DNA of 64,000 bases from a virus (IMGVR_UViG_3300021387_000529:64001-128000), one strand, 5' to 3'. Shown: positions 5,299 to 12,283, counted from the first letter of the stretch. Made by a program: numbers and translations. The notes: generated by a model from the sequence alone, not told the origin.

Positions 5299-6114
5299 AT
5301 GAAATTTGACCATATTATAATGAACCCACCTTATTCTGGTTCATTGCATCTTAAAATCCTCAGAGAAGCTATAAAACATAGTGATGATATAGTGAATTTG
5401 AGCCCAGTGGAATGGATGCTTCGTCCATTTTCTAAGAAAACATGGACTTCGCTCTTTAATAACTATTCTGTGGATATTGGCGCGCATTTGAGCACTTTGA
5501 GTATTATAACTAAAGATGACGCTGCCAAAGCATTTGATATTGGTATTGAAAGTGATCTTGGAATATATTATCTTACTAAAGAAGGCGGTTTTGACTATGC
5601 GAACTATTATAAAGAGTTTTCTAAAGAAGAACTCAAGAATATAGACCGTTTTGGAAATGGCGACAACTTAGCAGCTCATATTGTGAAATATGATGGAACA
5701 CAGAAACATTTTGTTCCACTAAGGAAAGACGCCATTATGGAAAGATGGTGGAAATATCAGCTCATAAATTATTTGGATATTATTGAGAACGGTAAAGTTT
5801 ATTCAGGCGACTATGTTGGAAAGACTATTATTGAAGCTCGTGAAGCAAATCCCCATGAAAATGGCCGCAACAATGATAGAGATACATTTGGTATTGCGTT
5901 TAATTCATTAGAAGAAGCTATAAACTTTAGAAATTGTGTGAAGTCACGGCCATATATTTGGATAATTTCATTATTTAAGAAGAGCAAACGTTTTCCAATG
6001 GAAAGGCTGCCATATTTAGGCGACTACACCCATCCATGGACAAATGACATGCTATACAAATATTTTGGCCTGACTGATGACGAAGTGAAGACTATTGAGA
6101 ATGAGGTAGAATAA
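5299..6114 (+). CDS. N6-adenine methyltransferase, C-terminal half (catalytic NPPY plus putative target-recognition region)
   Basis: Starts MKFDHIIMNPPY; contains no SAM-binding motif I. Confidence 0.75.
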   Translation: MKFDHIIMNPPYSGSLHLKILREAIKHSDDIVNLSPVEWMLRPFSKKTWTSLFNNYSVDIGAHLSTLSIITKDDAAKAFDIGIESDLGIYYLTKEGGFDYANYYKEFSKEELKNIDRFGNGDNLAAHIVKYDGTQKHFVPLRKDAIMERWWKYQLINYLDIIENGKVYSGDYVGKTIIEAREANPHENGRNNDRDTFGIAFNSLEEAINFRNCVKSRPYIWIISLFKKSKRFPMERLPYLGDYTHPWTNDMLYKYFGLTDDEVKTIENEVE

Positions 6115-6115
6115 A

Positions 6116-6295
6116 ATGACAGTGAATGAAAAACCAAGACATAATGCTAAAGTGCGAATCCAATATATTGATAAAGGAAGAACATTTGAAGCAATAGGAT
6201 ATTACATGTTTTGTGGCGCAGACTATGGATTTGTTGCTGCAGGATTTTATATTCCAGATGAACAAATTACAAATTGGGAATATGTTACTATTTAA
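6116..6295 (+). CDS. hypothetical protein (59 aa, not in the ORF track)
   Basis: MTVNEKPRHN...WEYVTI*; GAGG SD; fills the gap between genes. Confidence 0.5.
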   Translation: MTVNEKPRHNAKVRIQYIDKGRTFEAIGYYMFCGADYGFVAAGFYIPDEQITNWEYVTI

Positions 6296-6310
6296 ATGGA
6301 GGAAAAAGAA

Positions 6311-6577
6311 ATGAAAAATCACATTACGATTGAAGACATTAACGCAAAAATTGTTGACAAGAAATTCACAGTTCTTGAAGATGGCCGCACAACTATCTGC
6401 AACCTCTATCTTCAGAATGGCTTTACTGTTCGTGGTGAGAGCGCATGTGTTGCCATTGAAAACTACAACAAAGAGATTGGAGAAAAGATTGCATATGAAA
6501 ATGCAGTTGACAAAGTTTGGGAATTGGAAGGCTATCTCTTAGCTGAAGACAGGTATCGCGAGAAAGTTAATGTATAA
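6311..6577 (+). CDS. N4 gp49/Sf6 gp66 family protein (possible Acb4-type nucleotide sponge)
   Basis: TTIC.L.LQNGFTVRGESACV..ENYN.EIG.KIA..NA..KVWELEGYLL signature; GGAGG SD. Confidence 0.8.
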   Translation: MKNHITIEDINAKIVDKKFTVLEDGRTTICNLYLQNGFTVRGESACVAIENYNKEIGEKIAYENAVDKVWELEGYLLAEDRYREKVNV

Positions 6578-6582
6578 TATGT

Positions 6583-6714
6583 ATGACAATTGAAGAAGAA
6601 TACAATTCCTTTGTTGAAGAGCAGTATGCTGGAAAGTCTTTAGAAGAGCGCCAAAAATTAGGGCAGTTTTATACTCTTATTTTTAATAACTTACTAATTT
6701 TATATGAATTATAG
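6583..6714 (+). pseudogene. Truncated 5' remnant of the methyltransferase N-terminal half, interrupted by the HNH insertion
   Basis: MTIEEEYNSFVEEQYAGKSLEERQKLGQFYT matches the start of 7326-7796 (EYENWKKEQYADKTIKERQDLGAYFT); similarity stops at 6675. Confidence 0.8.
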
Positions 6715-7342
6715 AAAACTTTATTTAAGAATTATTAAAAATGCAAAGTATGAAGAGTCCTTAAACAAAAGGAACAGAAAAAACGGAATTTATTATGAGT
6801 CACATCATATATTGCCAAAGTCTATGTTTCCACTTTGGAAACATAGAAATAGTAATATTGTCTTACTTACTGCACGAGAGCATTTCTTTTGTCATCAGCT
6901 TCTTGTAAAAATTTATGACAACAAAGAAATGAATAATGCTTTATGGTTTATGACAATTTCAAAAAATAAACGTTTAGTTATTTCTTCAAAGGAATACGAA
7001 AAGATTAGAAAGAGCGTATGTTTAAGAGGAAAAAATAATGGATTTTTTGGAAAACACCATACTGAAGAAACATTAAGAAAAAATGCAGAATGGCATCATT
7101 TACATCCAAACTCAAAAGACACTATGGATAAAATCCATAAGAAAAATATTGGCAAGCATAGAACACTTGAACAACGAGAAAGACAGTCTAAAGCTGCCTT
7201 AAAAAGAGATAATACTAAAAATAATGAAAGAATTAAAAAAGTTAAGTTTCTTTATGAAAAATATAAAAATACTGGAGGCAAGCTCGTATGGAACGAGTTC
7301 CAAAAACATTATAAGGAGTTTGAGAATGGTACTTTCAGATGA
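6704..7342 (+). mobile_element. Free-standing MobE-like HNH homing endonuclease with NUMOD3-type repeats
   Basis: MNYRK.Y..II, YESHHILPKS, N.VLLTAREHFFCHQLL.KIY; N.FFGKHHTEET and GKHRTLEQR. Confidence 0.88.
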
Positions 7343-7796
7343 AATGAAAAATGAGCTTAGAGACGAATATGAGAATTGGAAAAAAGAACAATACGCCGAT
7401 AAAACTATAAAAGAAAGACAAGATTTAGGTGCTTATTTCACACCACCTGAATTGACATTGAAGATGCTCGAAAAGCTTGATATAAAAAAGAATGATACTC
7501 TTTTGGACCCATGCCTTGGAGCTGGTGGGCTTTTAGCTGCTGCTATCATCATGAAAAAAGTGAAGCCTGAAAACTGCTATGGAATTGAATTGGATGCTGA
7601 TATTTTGAAGATTGCACAAAAACGTCTTTCAAAATTAGGCGTGCCTTTAGCAAACTTACATCATGGAAACGCTCTAAATTCACAATGTTATGAGTTCAAA
7701 GATGGTTATAAATATGATGCAGAAAATGACACGGTTACAACTATGCAGTTTTCTAAAAGTTGTTCTAGATTTGGACAATTACGAGCAAGAGGTTAA
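7326..7796 (+). CDS. N6-adenine methyltransferase, N-terminal (SAM-binding) half
   Basis: GAYFTP (motif X), LLDPCLGAGG (I), YGIELD (II), GNAL (III); no NPPY; AAGGAG SD before ATG 7326. Confidence 0.8.
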   Translation: MVLSDEMKNELRDEYENWKKEQYADKTIKERQDLGAYFTPPELTLKMLEKLDIKKNDTLLDPCLGAGGLLAAAIIMKKVKPENCYGIELDADILKIAQKRLSKLGVPLANLHHGNALNSQCYEFKDGYKYDAENDTVTTMQFSKSCSRFGQLRARG

Positions 7797-7805
7797 TATA
7801 AAAAT

Positions 7806-8180
7806 ATGGGCTTGAAAATTACAAAAAATAAAAATCGTTCAGATTGGCTTCTTGTTGACGCCGACTTCCGTTCACTCCAAATGTGTCTCGCAATGGCAGA
7901 CTGCGGTCTTAATGATAAAGGAATAGACCAGGTCTGCTATGACATTTATGGTCCTGGGGGCAGCAATGACGCTCACAGTGTTACTGGTTTTAATACATTT
8001 ATCTCTCCAATTCATGGTAAAATCATTGAGATTGAAGACTTAGAGACTGGTAAGAAAACAGTTTTCGGACACAAACAGAAGATTGCAATTGAAAGAAAAG
8101 ACTTCACAGGAAAATACAACAAGATTGAAATTCTTGGTGAAGAATTCCGAGAAGATGACAAGTTTGTATCATATGTTTAA
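7806..8180 (+). CDS. polA: Family A DNA polymerase fragment carrying motif A
   Basis: WLLVDADFRSLQMCLA aligns with IVSADYSQIELRIMA; DAHSVTG..TF matches D.H..TA..F. Confidence 0.75.
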   Translation: MGLKITKNKNRSDWLLVDADFRSLQMCLAMADCGLNDKGIDQVCYDIYGPGGSNDAHSVTGFNTFISPIHGKIIEIEDLETGKKTVFGHKQKIAIERKDFTGKYNKIEILGEEFREDDKFVSYV

Positions 8181-8195
8181 CACTAATTAAACATC

Positions 8196-9311
8196 ATGAA
8201 AAATTTAGTTCAAAAACTCGGATATGCAGCTGGTGACTTTGGCTGCAATTTTATCTTTGCAACATTAGCAACTTGGTTTATTCCATTTTGTGTTTCTAAA
8301 GGCTTGTCTGTTTATGAGGCAGGCCTTATTATTTTCATATCTAAATTTATTGATGCGCTTGTAGACTTCTTTCTTGGTTACATCATCGATAAAAGACAAT
8401 ACAGAATTAAAAAATTTATGTTAGTTGGAGCGCCTTTAGTTATCCTGTCACTTTTGGCGCTTCAGCTCTCATCAGACTTCCTTTCTCTTTTTGTTTCATT
8501 TACATTATTAAATTCAATCAGTTACAACATTGTAAATATTCCATACAGCACATTAAACTTACGTATGACAGATGACCCAAACGAAAAAGTGTCATTAAAT
8601 TGCTGGCGTATGTTTGGCTCAATTTCATGCATGATTTTAGTAAATACTGTCACTCCAATCATTGGAAACATGCATATTGTAAATGGAATTTTATTTTTAG
8701 TCTTCACATATTTCTGTGCTCTAACATGTAAAGAAAATTATACTCCACAAGCACGCAGTGATATGGTTATTAAAGAAGTTGTTTGTGCAGTTGGCAGCTC
8801 ACTTTCTTTCTGGATTGCTTCAGTAATTTTCTTTATCATCAATTGTAAGCTTACATTGACATTCATAGACTTTGGACTTCATGGAGAAACAGCAGGCATA
8901 AACACACTTTTATTTATGGGGCCATCTCTTATAATGATGTTCATTCTTCCATCAATCTACAAACGCATTTCTAAAAAGCTGATATTAGCATGCGCATTTA
9001 TGGCATCAACTTTAATTGCTGTTTTGGACTTGACACAATATAAAAGCTGTATTTTGATTGATGGTTTTGCATTCTCAATTATGGCTTCACTTTTATATAA
9101 TCTTTATGCTGATGTTTCAGAACACATTGAATACAGAAATGGCCTTCAAATCCAAGCTTTCTTATTTGCAATGGCAAGTATTCTAACAAATCTCGCAAGC
9201 GGTATAACAGCTCTTACAGCTGAATACATCAGCACTGCTTCAATCTGCATCTTAAGCATTGGAACAATCGCTTCATTTATGAATTACATGCACAGTCTGA
9301 ATAAAAACTAA
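8196..9311 (+). CDS. MFS transporter, GPH/MelB-like family
   Basis: KLGYAAGDFG, DA..D...GY.ID, NIPY......T.DP.E...L...R motifs; many transmembrane segments. Confidence 0.85.
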   Translation: MKNLVQKLGYAAGDFGCNFIFATLATWFIPFCVSKGLSVYEAGLIIFISKFIDALVDFFLGYIIDKRQYRIKKFMLVGAPLVILSLLALQLSSDFLSLFVSFTLLNSISYNIVNIPYSTLNLRMTDDPNEKVSLNCWRMFGSISCMILVNTVTPIIGNMHIVNGILFLVFTYFCALTCKENYTPQARSDMVIKEVVCAVGSSLSFWIASVIFFIINCKLTLTFIDFGLHGETAGINTLLFMGPSLIMMFILPSIYKRISKKLILACAFMASTLIAVLDLTQYKSCILIDGFAFSIMASLLYNLYADVSEHIEYRNGLQIQAFLFAMASILTNLASGITALTAEYISTASICILSIGTIASFMNYMHSLNKN

Positions 9312-9321
9312 TTTTCTTATA

Positions 9322-9546
9322 ATGACAGTAGAAGAACGAGTTGAACATCTTAAGTCATCAATCAAGCATAATAAAAAAGTCGCTGATAGAACTCAGCGAC
9401 TTCTTGAAAAAGAAGAATCAGAATTAAAAAAGTTGGAAAAAAAGATTTGTGTCTGTCCAGCTTGCAATAAGACGCAAGAACTCAAATCTTTGAAAGCCAC
9501 TCATATTATTTGTAAATATTGTGGCTACCAAATCACAAAGTCTTAA
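9322..9546 (+). CDS. small coiled-coil plus Zn-ribbon protein
   Basis: CPAC...CKYCG. Confidence 0.6.
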   Translation: MTVEERVEHLKSSIKHNKKVADRTQRLLEKEESELKKLEKKICVCPACNKTQELKSLKATHIICKYCGYQITKS

Positions 9547-10304
9547 AACAGTCTTTCAGGCATCTGGTCCTCTGAAACTGTGTCGATATAATTGTCTTTA
9601 AATATCAACAATGCATCTTGTTTTTTAAGTTCACGTTGAACTAAATCTTGCAATGAATGACTGAACCCTTGAGACTCAATATCTTCAGGTAGCTTGTTCG
9701 AGATGAAAATGCATCCTTTGCCAGAGTTTATTCTTTCACGCAAAAATTCATCAATATATCCCAACTGATTTCCAGATGCCCATACATGGATTTTATCTTT
9801 GCTGAATGCTTCATCCAAAATTAAAACATCACAGTTAAGATAGTCTTCAGCTTTTTCTTTTGCTTCTTCATCTCTTTGAGAATTCCACAAAATATCAACC
9901 AAAGTCTTCATAAGAACATACCTGCAATCAATGCCTTTTCGCAATAAGTCTACGCCAATTGCTTGGACAAATGATGTTTTTTGTGTGCCATTGTCTCCAT
10001 AAACATAGATAAATGAAGACATTACTTTTTCCTTATTTGGGCCAATAAAACAATTATCATATGCAAGAAGACGCTCTGTTTCAGCTTTAGACTTTGTGCC
10101 AACATAGTCTGTTTCGAGAGTATATTCTATTGCATCTTTTGAGAAGCCGCGATTTAACGCTTTTCTTTCTAATTCTCTTTCGAGTCTCCAGACTTTGTGG
10201 TGGTGACACTCATTAATAAGTCCTTTTGGTCCAAGGAAATATCCTTCCGGAATAGACGAACCATCTTTTTTCTTACATTTTCTGCAAGGTATAAATTTCT
10301 CCAT
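9543..10304 (-). CDS. DnaC/IstB-like AAA+ ATPase (helicase loader)
   Basis: Walker A variant GDNGTQKT, Walker B LILDE, FISN; N-terminal CxxC. Confidence 0.75.
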   Translation of the reverse strand: MEKFIPCRKCKKKDGSSIPEGYFLGPKGLINECHHHKVWRLERELERKALNRGFSKDAIEYTLETDYVGTKSKAETERLLAYDNCFIGPNKEKVMSSFIYVYGDNGTQKTSFVQAIGVDLLRKGIDCRYVLMKTLVDILWNSQRDEEAKEKAEDYLNCDVLILDEAFSKDKIHVWASGNQLGYIDEFLRERINSGKGCIFISNKLPEDIESQGFSHSLQDLVQRELKKQDALLIFKDNYIDTVSEDQMPERLF

Positions 10305-10846
10305 ATTTTATGTCCTTTTTCATTCTCAAGAAGCTTAAACCATCTTAATTTATAGCCTCTCTTATAAAAGTTTATAAGGTTGGAATAATTTTCATATTTA
10401 TCAACTGCTTTGAGCTTTGCAGAGTCAAACAAACAATATCTTTTTATCAGATTATCATAAACCACAATATCATTTTGAGTTGATATAACTGAATTAAGAT
10501 AATTTCCACAAATAACAGTGCCATCGTTTTGTTCTTTTTCAAGGAAACGCTTTAGAAATTTTTCTGAGTCTTTTATATCTAAAGAACCAACTCTTTCAAA
10601 GTCTTTTGAAAATTCTTCAAATAAAAGAAGATTTCCAAACTTTACAAGTCTACCAATATCAAACACAGGATAATTTGCATCAAAAAGATAATGTTGATTT
10701 CTCCAGATAATTGTAGTTACTTCTTTCCAAAAGTCATCTTGAACAGACATATCTTTTCCTGTATAGCCTTTTAAAATTCTGTCATTTAAGTCTATACGGA
10801 TAATTCTATAGCTATTCTTAATGTCATCATCAAGATTGGTAAACAT
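10169..10846 (-). CDS. hypothetical protein
   Basis: 225 aa ORF coupled to the upstream gene; 3' end overlaps the DnaC-like gene. Confidence 0.6.
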   Translation of the reverse strand: MFTNLDDDIKNSYRIIRIDLNDRILKGYTGKDMSVQDDFWKEVTTIIWRNQHYLFDANYPVFDIGRLVKFGNLLLFEEFSKDFERVGSLDIKDSEKFLKRFLEKEQNDGTVICGNYLNSVISTQNDIVVYDNLIKRYCLFDSAKLKAVDKYENYSNLINFYKRGYKLRWFKLLENEKGHKIWRNLYLAENVRKKMVRLFRKDISLDQKDLLMSVTTTKSGDSKEN

Positions 10847-11264
10847 AATTATATATTAATTCCTTGTAATCAACATTCTCATCATAATTGATAGACTTAT
10901 GCTGTGTTATTCTCCACCACCAATACCAGTGCTCATTATGGGAGCTCAAGTCTTCACCTGTCAATGGATTTTGAAAATTATCCATTCGTCTGTGAATAAA
11001 TCTTTGAAGCGTTACAACATTTTTTGGATTGTAAATGACTGTTGAGTCTACAGACGCTGAAATAACATGTGCTGGGTCAAGAGCTTTTTGAGAGCCATCT
11101 TTTAAAAGATAGGCTTCTTTCAATGATATACAAAATTGAAATTGGCAGCGCCCTTTATCCCTTTTTCTGACTTGCTCTTTACATTCAGTCCATTTAGGGT
11201 CTTCAGAAGAGCGTCTGCTAACTGAGACTTTATTTGTTTTCTTGCCGATATTTTCTATTGCCAT
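10830..11264 (-). CDS. HNH-like nuclease
   Basis: VRKRDKGRCQ..C, DPAHV, NVVTL...IH..MD. Confidence 0.55.
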   Translation of the reverse strand: MAIENIGKKTNKVSVSRRSSEDPKWTECKEQVRKRDKGRCQFQFCISLKEAYLLKDGSQKALDPAHVISASVDSTVIYNPKNVVTLQRFIHRRMDNFQNPLTGEDLSSHNEHWYWWWRITQHKSINYDENVDYKELIYNYVYQS

Positions 11265-11269
11265 AACAA

Positions 11270-12283
11270 TTAAATAGTCTCAAGGTCTTTTTCGTCAGCT
11301 ATATGAACTGTAATTTTATGTGGAATATATGGAACTCCAAGCTTTCGTTGACTATCAAGAACACCATGGCGAGGAATACATTCTTCAATAAGAGCACAAA
11401 CATCATCATATTTTATCTGATGGTTTGGAAGCATTTCATTCCATTTTTCAAGTTCATCTTTCAATGACATATTCTCAATATTGATTTCTTCACCTTCACG
11501 GAAAATCATTCCAGTGTCAGGGTCAGACTCTTCAATATCAATATGCATTGGAATATCAAAATAAGGCTGACGAGCAAAAGCAGCTATTTCTGTCAAAAAT
11601 GCATAAAAAATATCACGCTCAACTTTGTAAACGTAACATTCGAACGAATCATGCACTGTGTTAAAGACACGTGTGCGTAAACCAAATCGTGTTACAAAAT
11701 TCATAATTGCTGTCACGTCAGGCATTGCCTGATAAACTTCAGCAGTCTGAATTGGAGAGTTTGTTGCATCATTACAGAGGTGAGCAAACTCACTCTTATA
11801 AAGCAAAGCATCAGCCCCAACAACTTCGCCTTCTGCATTTTTCTTCATCCAACGCAATTCAGCAAGATGACGAACTGGTCCTACCCATGAGCGAACATAT
11901 CCATGGACTTTTCCAAATTTCTGTTCACGAGCAGTTCTTTCCAAAAGACATGGATAAATCTTAAAGAAGAGCTCACGAATTTTTGTACCAACGACTGAAT
12001 ATTTTACAGACAATGGGTCAACTTTCTTACCCTTACTTTGGTCAGACAAAATCTTTGCATTTACAGCATTTGCCAAACCAAAGTTATTCATAGCTGTTGT
12101 TACTTTATTTTCATCAAAACCATAACCCTTTAGTTGAACTCCAAGTGAAGGCCCAGAACAACCAAACAAGGCGCCAAAATTGATGCCTTTAGCATCAGCT
12201 CGTGTGCCTTTAAATGGTTTAATTTTCTTGAGCTTCAAGAAGTCATCAAGAGTCATTTCTCTTTCTACAATTTTATATGCCAT
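11270..12283 (-). CDS. polA: Family A DNA polymerase fragment carrying motifs B and C
   Basis: RADAKGINFGALFG (B), GYVRS..G..R, ATNSPIQ, NTVHDS (C); no motif A. Confidence 0.88.
   Translation of the reverse strand: MAYKIVEREMTLDDFLKLKKIKPFKGTRADAKGINFGALFGCSGPSLGVQLKGYGFDENKVTTAMNNFGLANAVNAKILSDQSKGKKVDPLSVKYSVVGTKIRELFFKIYPCLLERTAREQKFGKVHGYVRSWVGPVRHLAELRWMKKNAEGEVVGADALLYKSEFAHLCNDATNSPIQTAEVYQAMPDVTAIMNFVTRFGLRTRVFNTVHDSFECYVYKVERDIFYAFLTEIAAFARQPYFDIPMHIDIEESDPDTGMIFREGEEINIENMSLKDELEKWNEMLPNHQIKYDDVCALIEECIPRHGVLDSQRKLGVPYIPHKITVHIADEKDLETI

Follow-up and report, generated by a model that had tools for sequence, protein, structure and literature searches.

Fractured genes, in which the coding sequence of an enzyme is broken at a split intein, have been described in phage-like DNA for gp41-1, NrdJ-1, IMPDH-1, NrdA-2 and DnaE (Dassa et al. 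2009, PMC2677866), and PolA is not among the intein hosts of that study. Here we analyse a family A DNA polymerase (PolA) encoded by three dispersed genes of the virus IMGVR_UViG_3300021387_000529, a 300,878-bp record with direct terminal repeats that is rated 100% complete. Two of the three genes lie within a stretch of 64,000 nt (bases 64,001-128,000 of the record, hereafter the window), and at each of the two breaks the upstream piece ends in a tail, and the downstream piece begins with a short head, that resemble parts of a split intein. We put forward, as the probable and best explanation of this arrangement, that the polymerase consists of three chains held together by split-intein remnants that can no longer splice.

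Like the fractured genes of PMC2677866, which affect essential replication and nucleotide enzymes and involve homing endonuclease genes, the locus combines a break at an intein with an N-intein (IntN) part upstream and a C-intein (IntC) part downstream. The described systems keep all six splicing motifs and five catalytic residues and ligate their pieces, whereas the PolA fragments keep no catalytic residue of the intein, and the polymerase differs further in having two breaks in one enzyme, with its pieces dispersed on both strands. Cyanobacterial DnaE and the PolB of Nanoarchaeum equitans are, likewise, replicative polymerases reassembled from distant genes via intein halves, but their inteins are complete and splicing-competent and yield one covalent chain. 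The association of such split inteins is electrostatic and has been described as 'capture and collapse' (bioRxiv 10.1101/546465). The NrdA of Aeromonas phage Aeh1 and the T4-like gp43 PolB show that non-covalent pieces can be functional after insertion of a mobile element, according to the passages of PMC2677866 that deal with them; in contrast to the present case, these homing-endonuclease-split enzymes consist of two pieces that remain side by side on the same strand, and no docking module of intein origin is part of them. More than one phage gene also encodes PolA in uncultured marine cyanophages and OM43 phages (bioRxiv 10.1101/325100; PMC10580990), but there, judging from the portions of those descriptions considered here, the two genes stand beside other conserved genes and no intein-like tails are described. 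Finally, jumbo phages also use distantly located genes for a split minimal PolIII-alpha and for multi-piece RNA polymerases (Iyer et al. 2021, PMC7824862), but the enzymes are different ones, and the excerpts of that work considered here mention no intein-derived ends. A full-text literature search of incomplete coverage found no description of docking modules derived from degenerate or non-splicing natural inteins.

Results

The three genes tile one family A DNA polymerase, covering Pfam DNA_pol_A positions 5-155, the motif A stretch and positions 204-374. Fragment 1 (7806-8180, + strand, 124 aa) carries palm motif A (LLVDADFRSLQ) and the DAHS helix of the fingers, and fragment 2 (11270-12283, - strand, 337 aa) carries the fingers O-helix motif B (RADAKGINFGALFG) and palm motif C (VHDS), matching Pfam DNA_pol_A (PF00476, E 4.4e-6) at positions 204-231 and 238-374 of 381. 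An earlier note, made from the sequence of the window alone, had read both open frames and the distribution of motif A and the D.H helix on the one and motifs B and C on the other in the same way. It had also reasoned that the absence of the exonuclease and thumb from the window called for at least one further piece, possibly ending in a similar extension. That piece is fragment 0, a 638-aa gene outside the window (G000:C1:197920-199836, equal to L001:1333-3249, - strand) that encodes the exonuclease, the thumb and the start of the palm, matches PF01612 (3'-5' exonuclease) and PF00476 positions 5-155 in a whole-genome search (68.3 bits, above cut-off), adjoins a DnaB-type helicase gene and ends in the anticipated extension of ~60 aa (tail 1, residues 579-638). 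The pieces thus number exactly three. Instead of the single polypeptide of family A, there are three genes on two strands, with 122 kb between fragment 0 and fragment 2.

Fragment 1 is too short, at 124 aa, for a Pfam match of its own, and its place in the enzyme follows from relatives: it aligns without gaps and colinearly with the same stretch of unsplit relatives such as P0043, corresponds to residues ~578-695 of relatives unsplit at the first break, and in P0137, where this stretch is fused to the upstream part, the Pfam match spans 7-213. The first break (site 1) falls just before motif A and the second (site 2) just before motif B. Motifs A, B and C (VDADF, RADAKGINFGALFG and VHDS) are invariant in alignments A5 and A6, and the catalytic Asp, Lys and Arg residues are all kept. 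Some deviations in the active site are common to the clade (window 7842-7895 and 11630-11660): the steric-gate Glu of motif A is replaced by Gln, motif B reads LFG where xYG is usual, and motif C has HDS in place of HDE; in E. coli numbering we take these to place Phe at Tyr766 and Ser at Glu883.

An intact polA elsewhere, which the earlier note had named as an outcome that would overturn its reading, was looked for in the complete record and not found. Since the record yielded no PolB, PolIII-alpha or second PolA, the three-gene PolA is the only recognisable DNA polymerase of the phage. A tblastn search of 50,697 phage records with fragment 2 gave a 22%-identical Streptomyces phage polymerase as its sole match, and on that basis the phage has no cultured relative.

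Both breaks share one module, made of a C-terminal tail of ~50 aa on the upstream piece and an N-terminal strand of 9-11 aa, the head, on the next. At site 1 the homology of fragment 0 stops after FFVAPP and is followed by SHEFIEVEDDKGNKW...VITQRGSVRFEDLVETDEILEY and a further 17 residues; the extein resumes at SDWLL, after the fragment 1 head MGLKITKNKNR (7806-7838, + strand), a C-intein-like first strand with a net charge of +4 whose expected partner is tail 1. At site 2 the homology of fragment 1 stops after FISP and gives way to tail 2 (IHGKIIEIEDLETGKK...EILGEEFREDDKFVSYV; residues 68-124, 8007-8177, + strand), a truncated N-intein-like module between the DAHS helix and motif B, which the fragment 2 head MAYKIVERE (12257-12283, - strand), again a C-intein-like first strand and followed by MTLDDF, would be expected to complete. 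Tails begin 3-5 residues from an extein motif, PP or FxxP, and exteins resume 9-11 residues past the start codon. A comparison with hhalign also relates the two tails to one another (probability 94%, E 1.2e-7, 49 columns), and the fragment 2 head matches the last strand (VVLSERE) of the continuous module in P0063, a relative in which fragments 1 and 2 are fused. The extension of fragment 1 and the M-x-x-K-I starts to which the earlier note had drawn attention are not peculiar to this phage: the ~57-aa tail and the heads are conserved in dozens of relatives, the heads as M-x-LKI-x-K on fragment 1 and MYKITKR on fragment 2. Hidden Markov models (HMMs) of tails 1 and 2 found no further copy among all 4,782 open frames of the phage's own genome, so that its other fragmented genes do not use the module.

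A hairpin near the C-terminus of fragment 2 (HIDIEESDPDTGMIFREGEEINIE, window 11474-11545, - strand) resembles the first hairpin of the tails (IIEIEDLETGKKTVFGHKQKIAIE), and MAFFT aligned the two; the likeness may be one of chance among charged beta-hairpins. Alignments A1-A3, also made with MAFFT, were misaligned, with heads placed on heads or on an inner strand of the tail, and were not used for folding.

The origin of the module was traced with a profile of 50 positions that was built from both tails (A10) and run against 1.84 billion representatives. The profile returned 68 matches at E <=1e-3, nearly all at the extreme C-terminus of the matched protein, and these included PolA pieces and pieces of ribonucleotide reductase (RNR; P0166, P0182, P0184, P0163, P0191 and P0160). 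The ends of the RNR pieces are genuine split-intein N-fragments, with Cys as first residue, a Pfam Intein_splicing match at ~5-93 and block B as FTxNH. The PolA tails align with these RNR N-inteins at an hhalign probability of 98.4% (E 4.8e-15) over 48 columns, which correspond to the final 48 residues of an N-intein of ~115 and run to the C-terminus of the protein. One of the loci concerned (L015) is a textbook fractured gene, consisting of an RNR piece with IntN, a 457-aa open reading frame (ORF), MRIKRITRLEEKMPTYDFEVKTHHHYFLGNGCASHN/T and the remaining RNR. Its C-intein starts with MRIKRITRLEE and continues into blocks F and G; the PolA heads resemble only its first ~10 residues, in keeping with the suggestion of the earlier note that they look like split-intein C-halves. 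The PolA ends thus combine homology to N- and C-inteins with a break at the canonical split site, where endonucleases insert, and judged by these alignments the tails are homologous to genuine split-intein N-fragments.

The same truncated module also stands at the extreme C-terminus of pieces of PolIII-alpha (P0181, P0195), PolB (P0189) and RNA ligase (P0170), in each case without Cys1, without the first half of the intein and without a Pfam intein match. On the two PolIII-alpha pieces it directly follows FERFL, just ahead of the expected catalytic aspartates.

Comparison of predicted folds points in the same direction. In an AlphaFold2 (AF2) model of the continuous P0063 module (pLDDT 71) there are six strands, of which the sixth is the head equivalent VVLSERE; the head-equivalent segment of P0064 likewise forms the sixth strand of its module. 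Foldseek retrieved split and mini-inteins as the best PDB matches of the P0063 module (top match AceL NrdHF, E 0.39, probability 0.89, TM 0.48); VIA, a wide search independent of Foldseek, returned inteins or hedgehog proteins in its top 21 rows (best 5bkh_A, Z 6.2, rmsd 2.9 A over 65 residues); and a structure search of the ESM Atlas returned mostly intein-bearing phage proteins (TM 0.52-0.58). With an AF2 model of the phage's own tail 1 (pLDDT 69), only 20 of 48,161 chains reached Z >=2, all of them inteins or hedgehog proteins, and the top Foldseek match was the N-intein of Npu DnaE, at IntN residues 49-96 of 101, a further likeness to the DnaE system. What gives this model-based evidence its weight is that two models and three search methods retrieved a single fold almost exclusively. 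Together with the alignment to IntN, it upholds the proposal of the earlier note that the extension recalls the N-terminal Hint/intein region, for which it had recommended a Foldseek comparison with Hint domains. The mapped region (~residues 40-111 of gp41-1) corresponds approximately to the second pseudo-symmetric unit of the HINT fold, to which the natural split site and the 'charge zipper' of beta3/beta6 belong (bioRxiv 10.1101/546465).

Among ~5.8 billion clustered proteins searched, 53 relatives are close to fragment 0, 45 to fragment 2 and 30 are stand-alone counterparts of fragment 1, and the breakpoints are kept in more than 50 relatives; the exact fragment 0 protein occurs on 15 contigs of up to 305 kb. 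All relatives are broken at site 2 except P0063 and P0064 (469 and 465 aa), in which fragments 1 and 2 are fused and the module is continuous. Proteins of type A (613-677 aa), the type of this phage, are also broken at site 1, and those of type B (685-701 aa) run through site 1 without an insert. Two distant fused polymerases differ from each other, P0055 having continuous inserts of ~60 aa at both sites and P0054 neither insert, so that fused, two-piece and three-piece forms of PolA coexist in the clade. In a quick tree of fragment 0 cores the forms split at site 1 are basal and the unsplit forms nested within them, with at least two changes forced by well-supported branches; this tree, which is not definitive, suggests clean loss and re-fusion at site 1. 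Compared with relatives of 82-87% protein identity, the ratio of nonsynonymous to synonymous rates (dN/dS, at a dS of ~0.9 that is near saturation) amounts to 0.13 in tail 1 and 0.24 in tail 2, both of which are under purifying selection, and to 0.09 and 0.03 in the cores. P0105 and P0064 are identical over their first 73 residues and diverge sharply where the module starts, as a split tail in the former and a continuous fused module in the latter, a mosaic that suggests recombination or gene conversion at the module.

The layout of the pieces varies among relatives. They are adjacent on one strand with a 53-aa ORF between them in L005, and all three are colinear with unrelated ORFs between them in L006; none of the intervening ORFs of these two contigs matched an endonuclease. 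In one further sample (L008, L009), 6 kb separate fragments 0 and 2, which are on opposite strands, and fragment 1 is on another contig. Genes of 142 aa, 237 aa and a loader come after the fused fragment 1+2 gene in L011, just as they come after fragment 2 in the window. The convergent layout of the window is therefore the one that would result if the block from fragment 2 through the 144-aa and 225-aa genes to the loader had been inverted and the transporter gene inserted.

Discussion

We propose that the PolA of this phage is made of three separately translated chains, each break lying within a module of ~60 residues that would be the middle of a split intein, with the last ~48 N-intein residues upstream, the first ~10 C-intein residues downstream and the gene break at the canonical split-intein (homing-endonuclease insertion) site. 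No peptide bond could be formed there, because Cys1 with block A, the Thr and His of block B, and blocks F and G are gone. Each head strand would zip onto the preceding tail as in the 'capture' step of split inteins, completing the sheet of a half-HINT unit, and the completed beta module would remain beside the active site of the mature enzyme, a non-covalent clasp that may help to bring the two catalytic Asp residues together. What the sequences show is the anatomy of the three genes, its conservation, the homology with split inteins and the loss of the catalytic blocks, whereas binding of the chains to one another, a lack of splicing in vivo and a part for the clasp in assembly are inferred. 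As to its history, an ancestral polymerase with intein-derived inserts at both sites may have been fractured at the intein split sites, and its pieces later dispersed.

A three-chain structure prediction (fragment 0 residues 380-638, fragment 1 and fragment 2, with a separate alignment per chain) is consistent with this scheme. It gave an ipSAE of 0.85 (runs 0.84-0.86), the best of three controls giving 0.09; of 80 solved complexes 58 attain the mark applied to this score, as do 2 of 110 mismatched pairs. Docking runs share at least 96% of their contacts, with partner pLDDT >=87. The predicted interface comprises tail 1 residues 579-588 and 611-619, fragment 1 residues 1-22, 66-80 and 114-124, and fragment 2 residues 1-12, so that in the model the heads lie on the tails. 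We read the score as compatibility and not as binding, because halves of split enzymes tend to pass through their likeness to solved PolA. Tail 1, at a charge of -11, and its partner head, at +4, are oppositely charged, as in the charge zipper of gp41-1 and Npu DnaE (bioRxiv 10.1101/546465). The idea of the earlier note that the enzyme assembles from three or more chains through non-splicing, intein-derived modules, for which it had advised multimer modelling of the fragments, is thus borne out at each step that could be followed computationally, with three as the number of chains.

The most serious alternative, which we regard as a good deal less probable, is that the native interfaces of the polymerase core assemble the chains, and that the intein leftovers are vestigial or have another role, such as binding DNA or an accessory factor. 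Several observations weigh on its side and against the clasp. The lowest-error contacts of the model are palm to palm (fragment 2 217-220 with fragment 1 13-17) and not in the module, and the docking score itself may reflect memory of intact or solved PolA folds. Type B proteins have neither break nor module at site 1, P0063 and P0064 are fused at site 2, and P0054 has neither insert, so the module is not indispensable to the fold. Charges at site 2 are not complementary (tail 2 -1, head 0), and the intein reading does not account for the last 17 residues of fragment 0 (G000:C1:197923-197973), a conserved YDKxxSIYDxxFxxWCY that lies beyond the intein-like core and is modelled with low confidence. 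Split Aeh1 NrdA and T4-like gp43, as cited in the relevant passages of PMC2677866, work without inteins. The intein ancestry also has its own weak points: Pfam recovered no Hint or intein family from the tails or from the continuous P0055 inserts, even at E up to 10, the tail profile gave chance-level matches only against PDB sequences, a feature (language-model) search of the ESM Atlas with the module gave no usable match, and the fold comparisons rest on models of moderate confidence (pLDDT 69-71) with single Z-scores, at most 6.2, that are unremarkable. What speaks against a passenger role is that all split forms conserve the tails and heads, which evolve under purifying selection, that the part retained is the exact stretch that mediates split-intein association, with the break at the split site, and that the same truncated module recurs at the C-terminus of pieces of unrelated enzymes. 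We therefore continue to favour the clasp.

It is much less probable again that the modules are still active as unorthodox minimal split inteins, ligating the chains by protein trans-splicing. Homology to split inteins, the existence of inteins of unusual chemistry (class 3, cysteine-less) and a Ser after the PP motif in many fragment 0 relatives could be cited for it, but that Ser is not kept in deeper relatives and only ~58 of ~146 intein residues are left. A complete HINT domain has ~125-150 residues with blocks A, B, F and G, of which ~48 and ~10 residues remain here. The first ~65 N-intein residues, with block A and Cys1, are absent from the tails, and relatives have no conserved Cys or Ser at the junction. 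Where the genuine N-inteins have FTxNH in block B, the tails align with a non-conserved F-G-E/H-x-Q or N-S-x-Y. Blocks F and G, the terminal Asn and a conserved +1 nucleophile are absent or variable in heads and junctions; neither MGLKITKNKNR nor MAYKIVERE has a His-Asn, the junction residues vary among relatives, and the genuine partner reads ...CASHN/T. Pfam Intein_splicing has no match in the phage's own genome. The lack of Cys1 and of a His-Asn junction that the earlier note had remarked on therefore extends to the relatives, among which no conserved Cys1 or Ser1, TxxH or His-Asn was found. With blocks A, B, F and G and all splicing residues missing, splicing is, on sequence grounds, very unlikely.

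At about the same low level of credibility, or slightly below it, stands the possibility that the genes are decaying remnants of a polymerase and that the phage is replicated by the host or by an unrecognised enzyme. The dispersal of the pieces in a locus rich in mobile elements, and the active-site deviations (Gln for the steric-gate Glu, HDS for HDE), would be in line with decay, but the three frames are open at dN/dS values of 0.03-0.24, a deep clade of large phages shares the breakpoints, the genome yielded no other polymerase, and the catalytic Asp, Lys and Arg are invariant.

Joining of the pieces at the RNA level by trans-splicing, or an artefact of assembly, is hardly credible, for although relatives have odd gaps in their polymerase genes (see below), the pieces lie on opposite strands and 122 kb apart, each begins with a start codon of its own, the tails are conserved at the protein level, and the gene order and strands of the window are repeated in independent assemblies from other samples (L004, L013 and L014), which exclude the misassembly between 8180 and 12283 that the earlier note had listed as a possible refutation. 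On the evidence given for each, the pseudogene, RNA-joining, misassembly and canonical trans-splicing readings were rejected.

We consider it somewhat more probable than not that truncated, dead split-intein halves form a widespread family exapted as a portable non-covalent clasp, which lets essential phage enzymes work though their genes are fractured and scattered. The enzymes concerned would be PolA and, on other contigs, the PolIII-alpha, PolB and RNA ligase pieces. In that case exaptation would be a new fate of inteins, which are thought either to splice or to be lost, and would supply a missing end-stage of the intein and homing-endonuclease cycle: the association half of a split intein seems to persist as a docking device, twice within the one essential enzyme, across a deep clade of large phages. 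It would explain how replication genes can remain functional although broken beside catalytic residues and scattered over a genome, and would provide natural, small and possibly orthogonal heterodimerisation tags (~50 aa and ~10 aa) for protein engineering. Pieces of this kind are routinely annotated as hypothetical proteins or pseudogenes.

Gaps in the polymerase genes of relatives and neighbouring genes

Some near-identical relatives have interruptions within their polymerase genes, up to several in a single gene, that resemble the programmed ribosomal bypass of T4 gene 60. Two contigs from different samples (L013:3800-4231, equal to L014:2971-3402) carry a fragment 1 that is ~99% identical to window 7806-8180 and is interrupted by three non-coding gaps (35, 11 and 14 nt), across which the reading frame moves from 1 to 3, to 2 and back to 1. 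Each gap opens with a stop codon, placed immediately behind a codon that returns, unchanged or almost so, where the gap closes (CTT..CTT, TAT..TAC, AGT..GGC); with the gaps skipped, a 123-aa product results that is identical to fragment 1 of the window at 109 of 110 positions. A third contig (L012:1988-2386 and L012:2899-3918) has four shorter, in-frame inserts at nearly the same sites in fragments 1 and 2, including motif B, each made of a stop codon and then a repeat or synonym of the preceding codon: CAA(TAG ATG CAA), GCC(TAG GCT), TGT(TAA AAA CCA TGA) and GTT(TGA GTG). ORFs starting with MNFASIFG (clusters P0069 and P0073, 20 member sequences) suggest that a version with the motif B insert is common.

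In L004 (L004:1973-2017 and L004:1046-1855), a 95% relative of window 11270-12283, motif B contains a 39-nt insert, GGC ATC TGA ...33 nt... ATC AAT, with matched ATC codons and a hairpin of -33.8 kcal/mol (z -4.1; none of 200 shuffles as good). A GIY-YIG endonuclease gene abuts fragment 2 directly upstream of this insert, a combination like the mobA/gene 60 cassette of T4, in which the gene 60 bypass is part of a mobile cassette with a homing endonuclease. The polymerase genes of the window itself have no such gap, and the motif B insert of L004 is absent from them.

In the window, fragments 1 and 2 are separated by genes for a major facilitator superfamily (MFS) transporter, a 74-aa protein, a DnaC-like loader, a 225-aa protein and a weakly HNH-like 144-aa protein, the unrelated genes between the pieces to which the earlier note referred. 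The transporter (8196-9311, + strand, 371 aa; Pfam MFS_2, E 4.8e-27) is of the MFS_2 sugar type, an unusual cargo for a phage, and is kept inside the replication-gene cluster in L004, L013 and L014. The DnaC/IstB-like helicase loader gene (9543-10304, - strand) forms, with the 225-aa and 144-aa genes, a block that travels with fragment 2; its order is also found after fragment 2 in L008 and L012 and after the fused P0063 in L011. The 144-aa gene (10830-11264, - strand) adjoins fragment 2 and is weakly HNH-endonuclease-like (phrog_119, E 3.4e-4; no Pfam match). Upstream of fragment 1, at a distance of 460 nt, lies an HNH/NUMOD3 homing endonuclease gene (6704-7342, + strand; phrog_655, E 6.7e-34), a mobile-element context.

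The region from 5299 to 7796 contains an N6-adenine methyltransferase in pieces, with the NPPY half at 5299-6114. A 43-aa stub (6583-6714) duplicates the start of a 190-aa AdoMet-binding piece (7224-7796), and the HNH/NUMOD3 gene lies between the two. The counterpart of these pieces in L013 is one 148-aa gene, and the NPPY part is found there within a 1077-aa ResIII-methylase.

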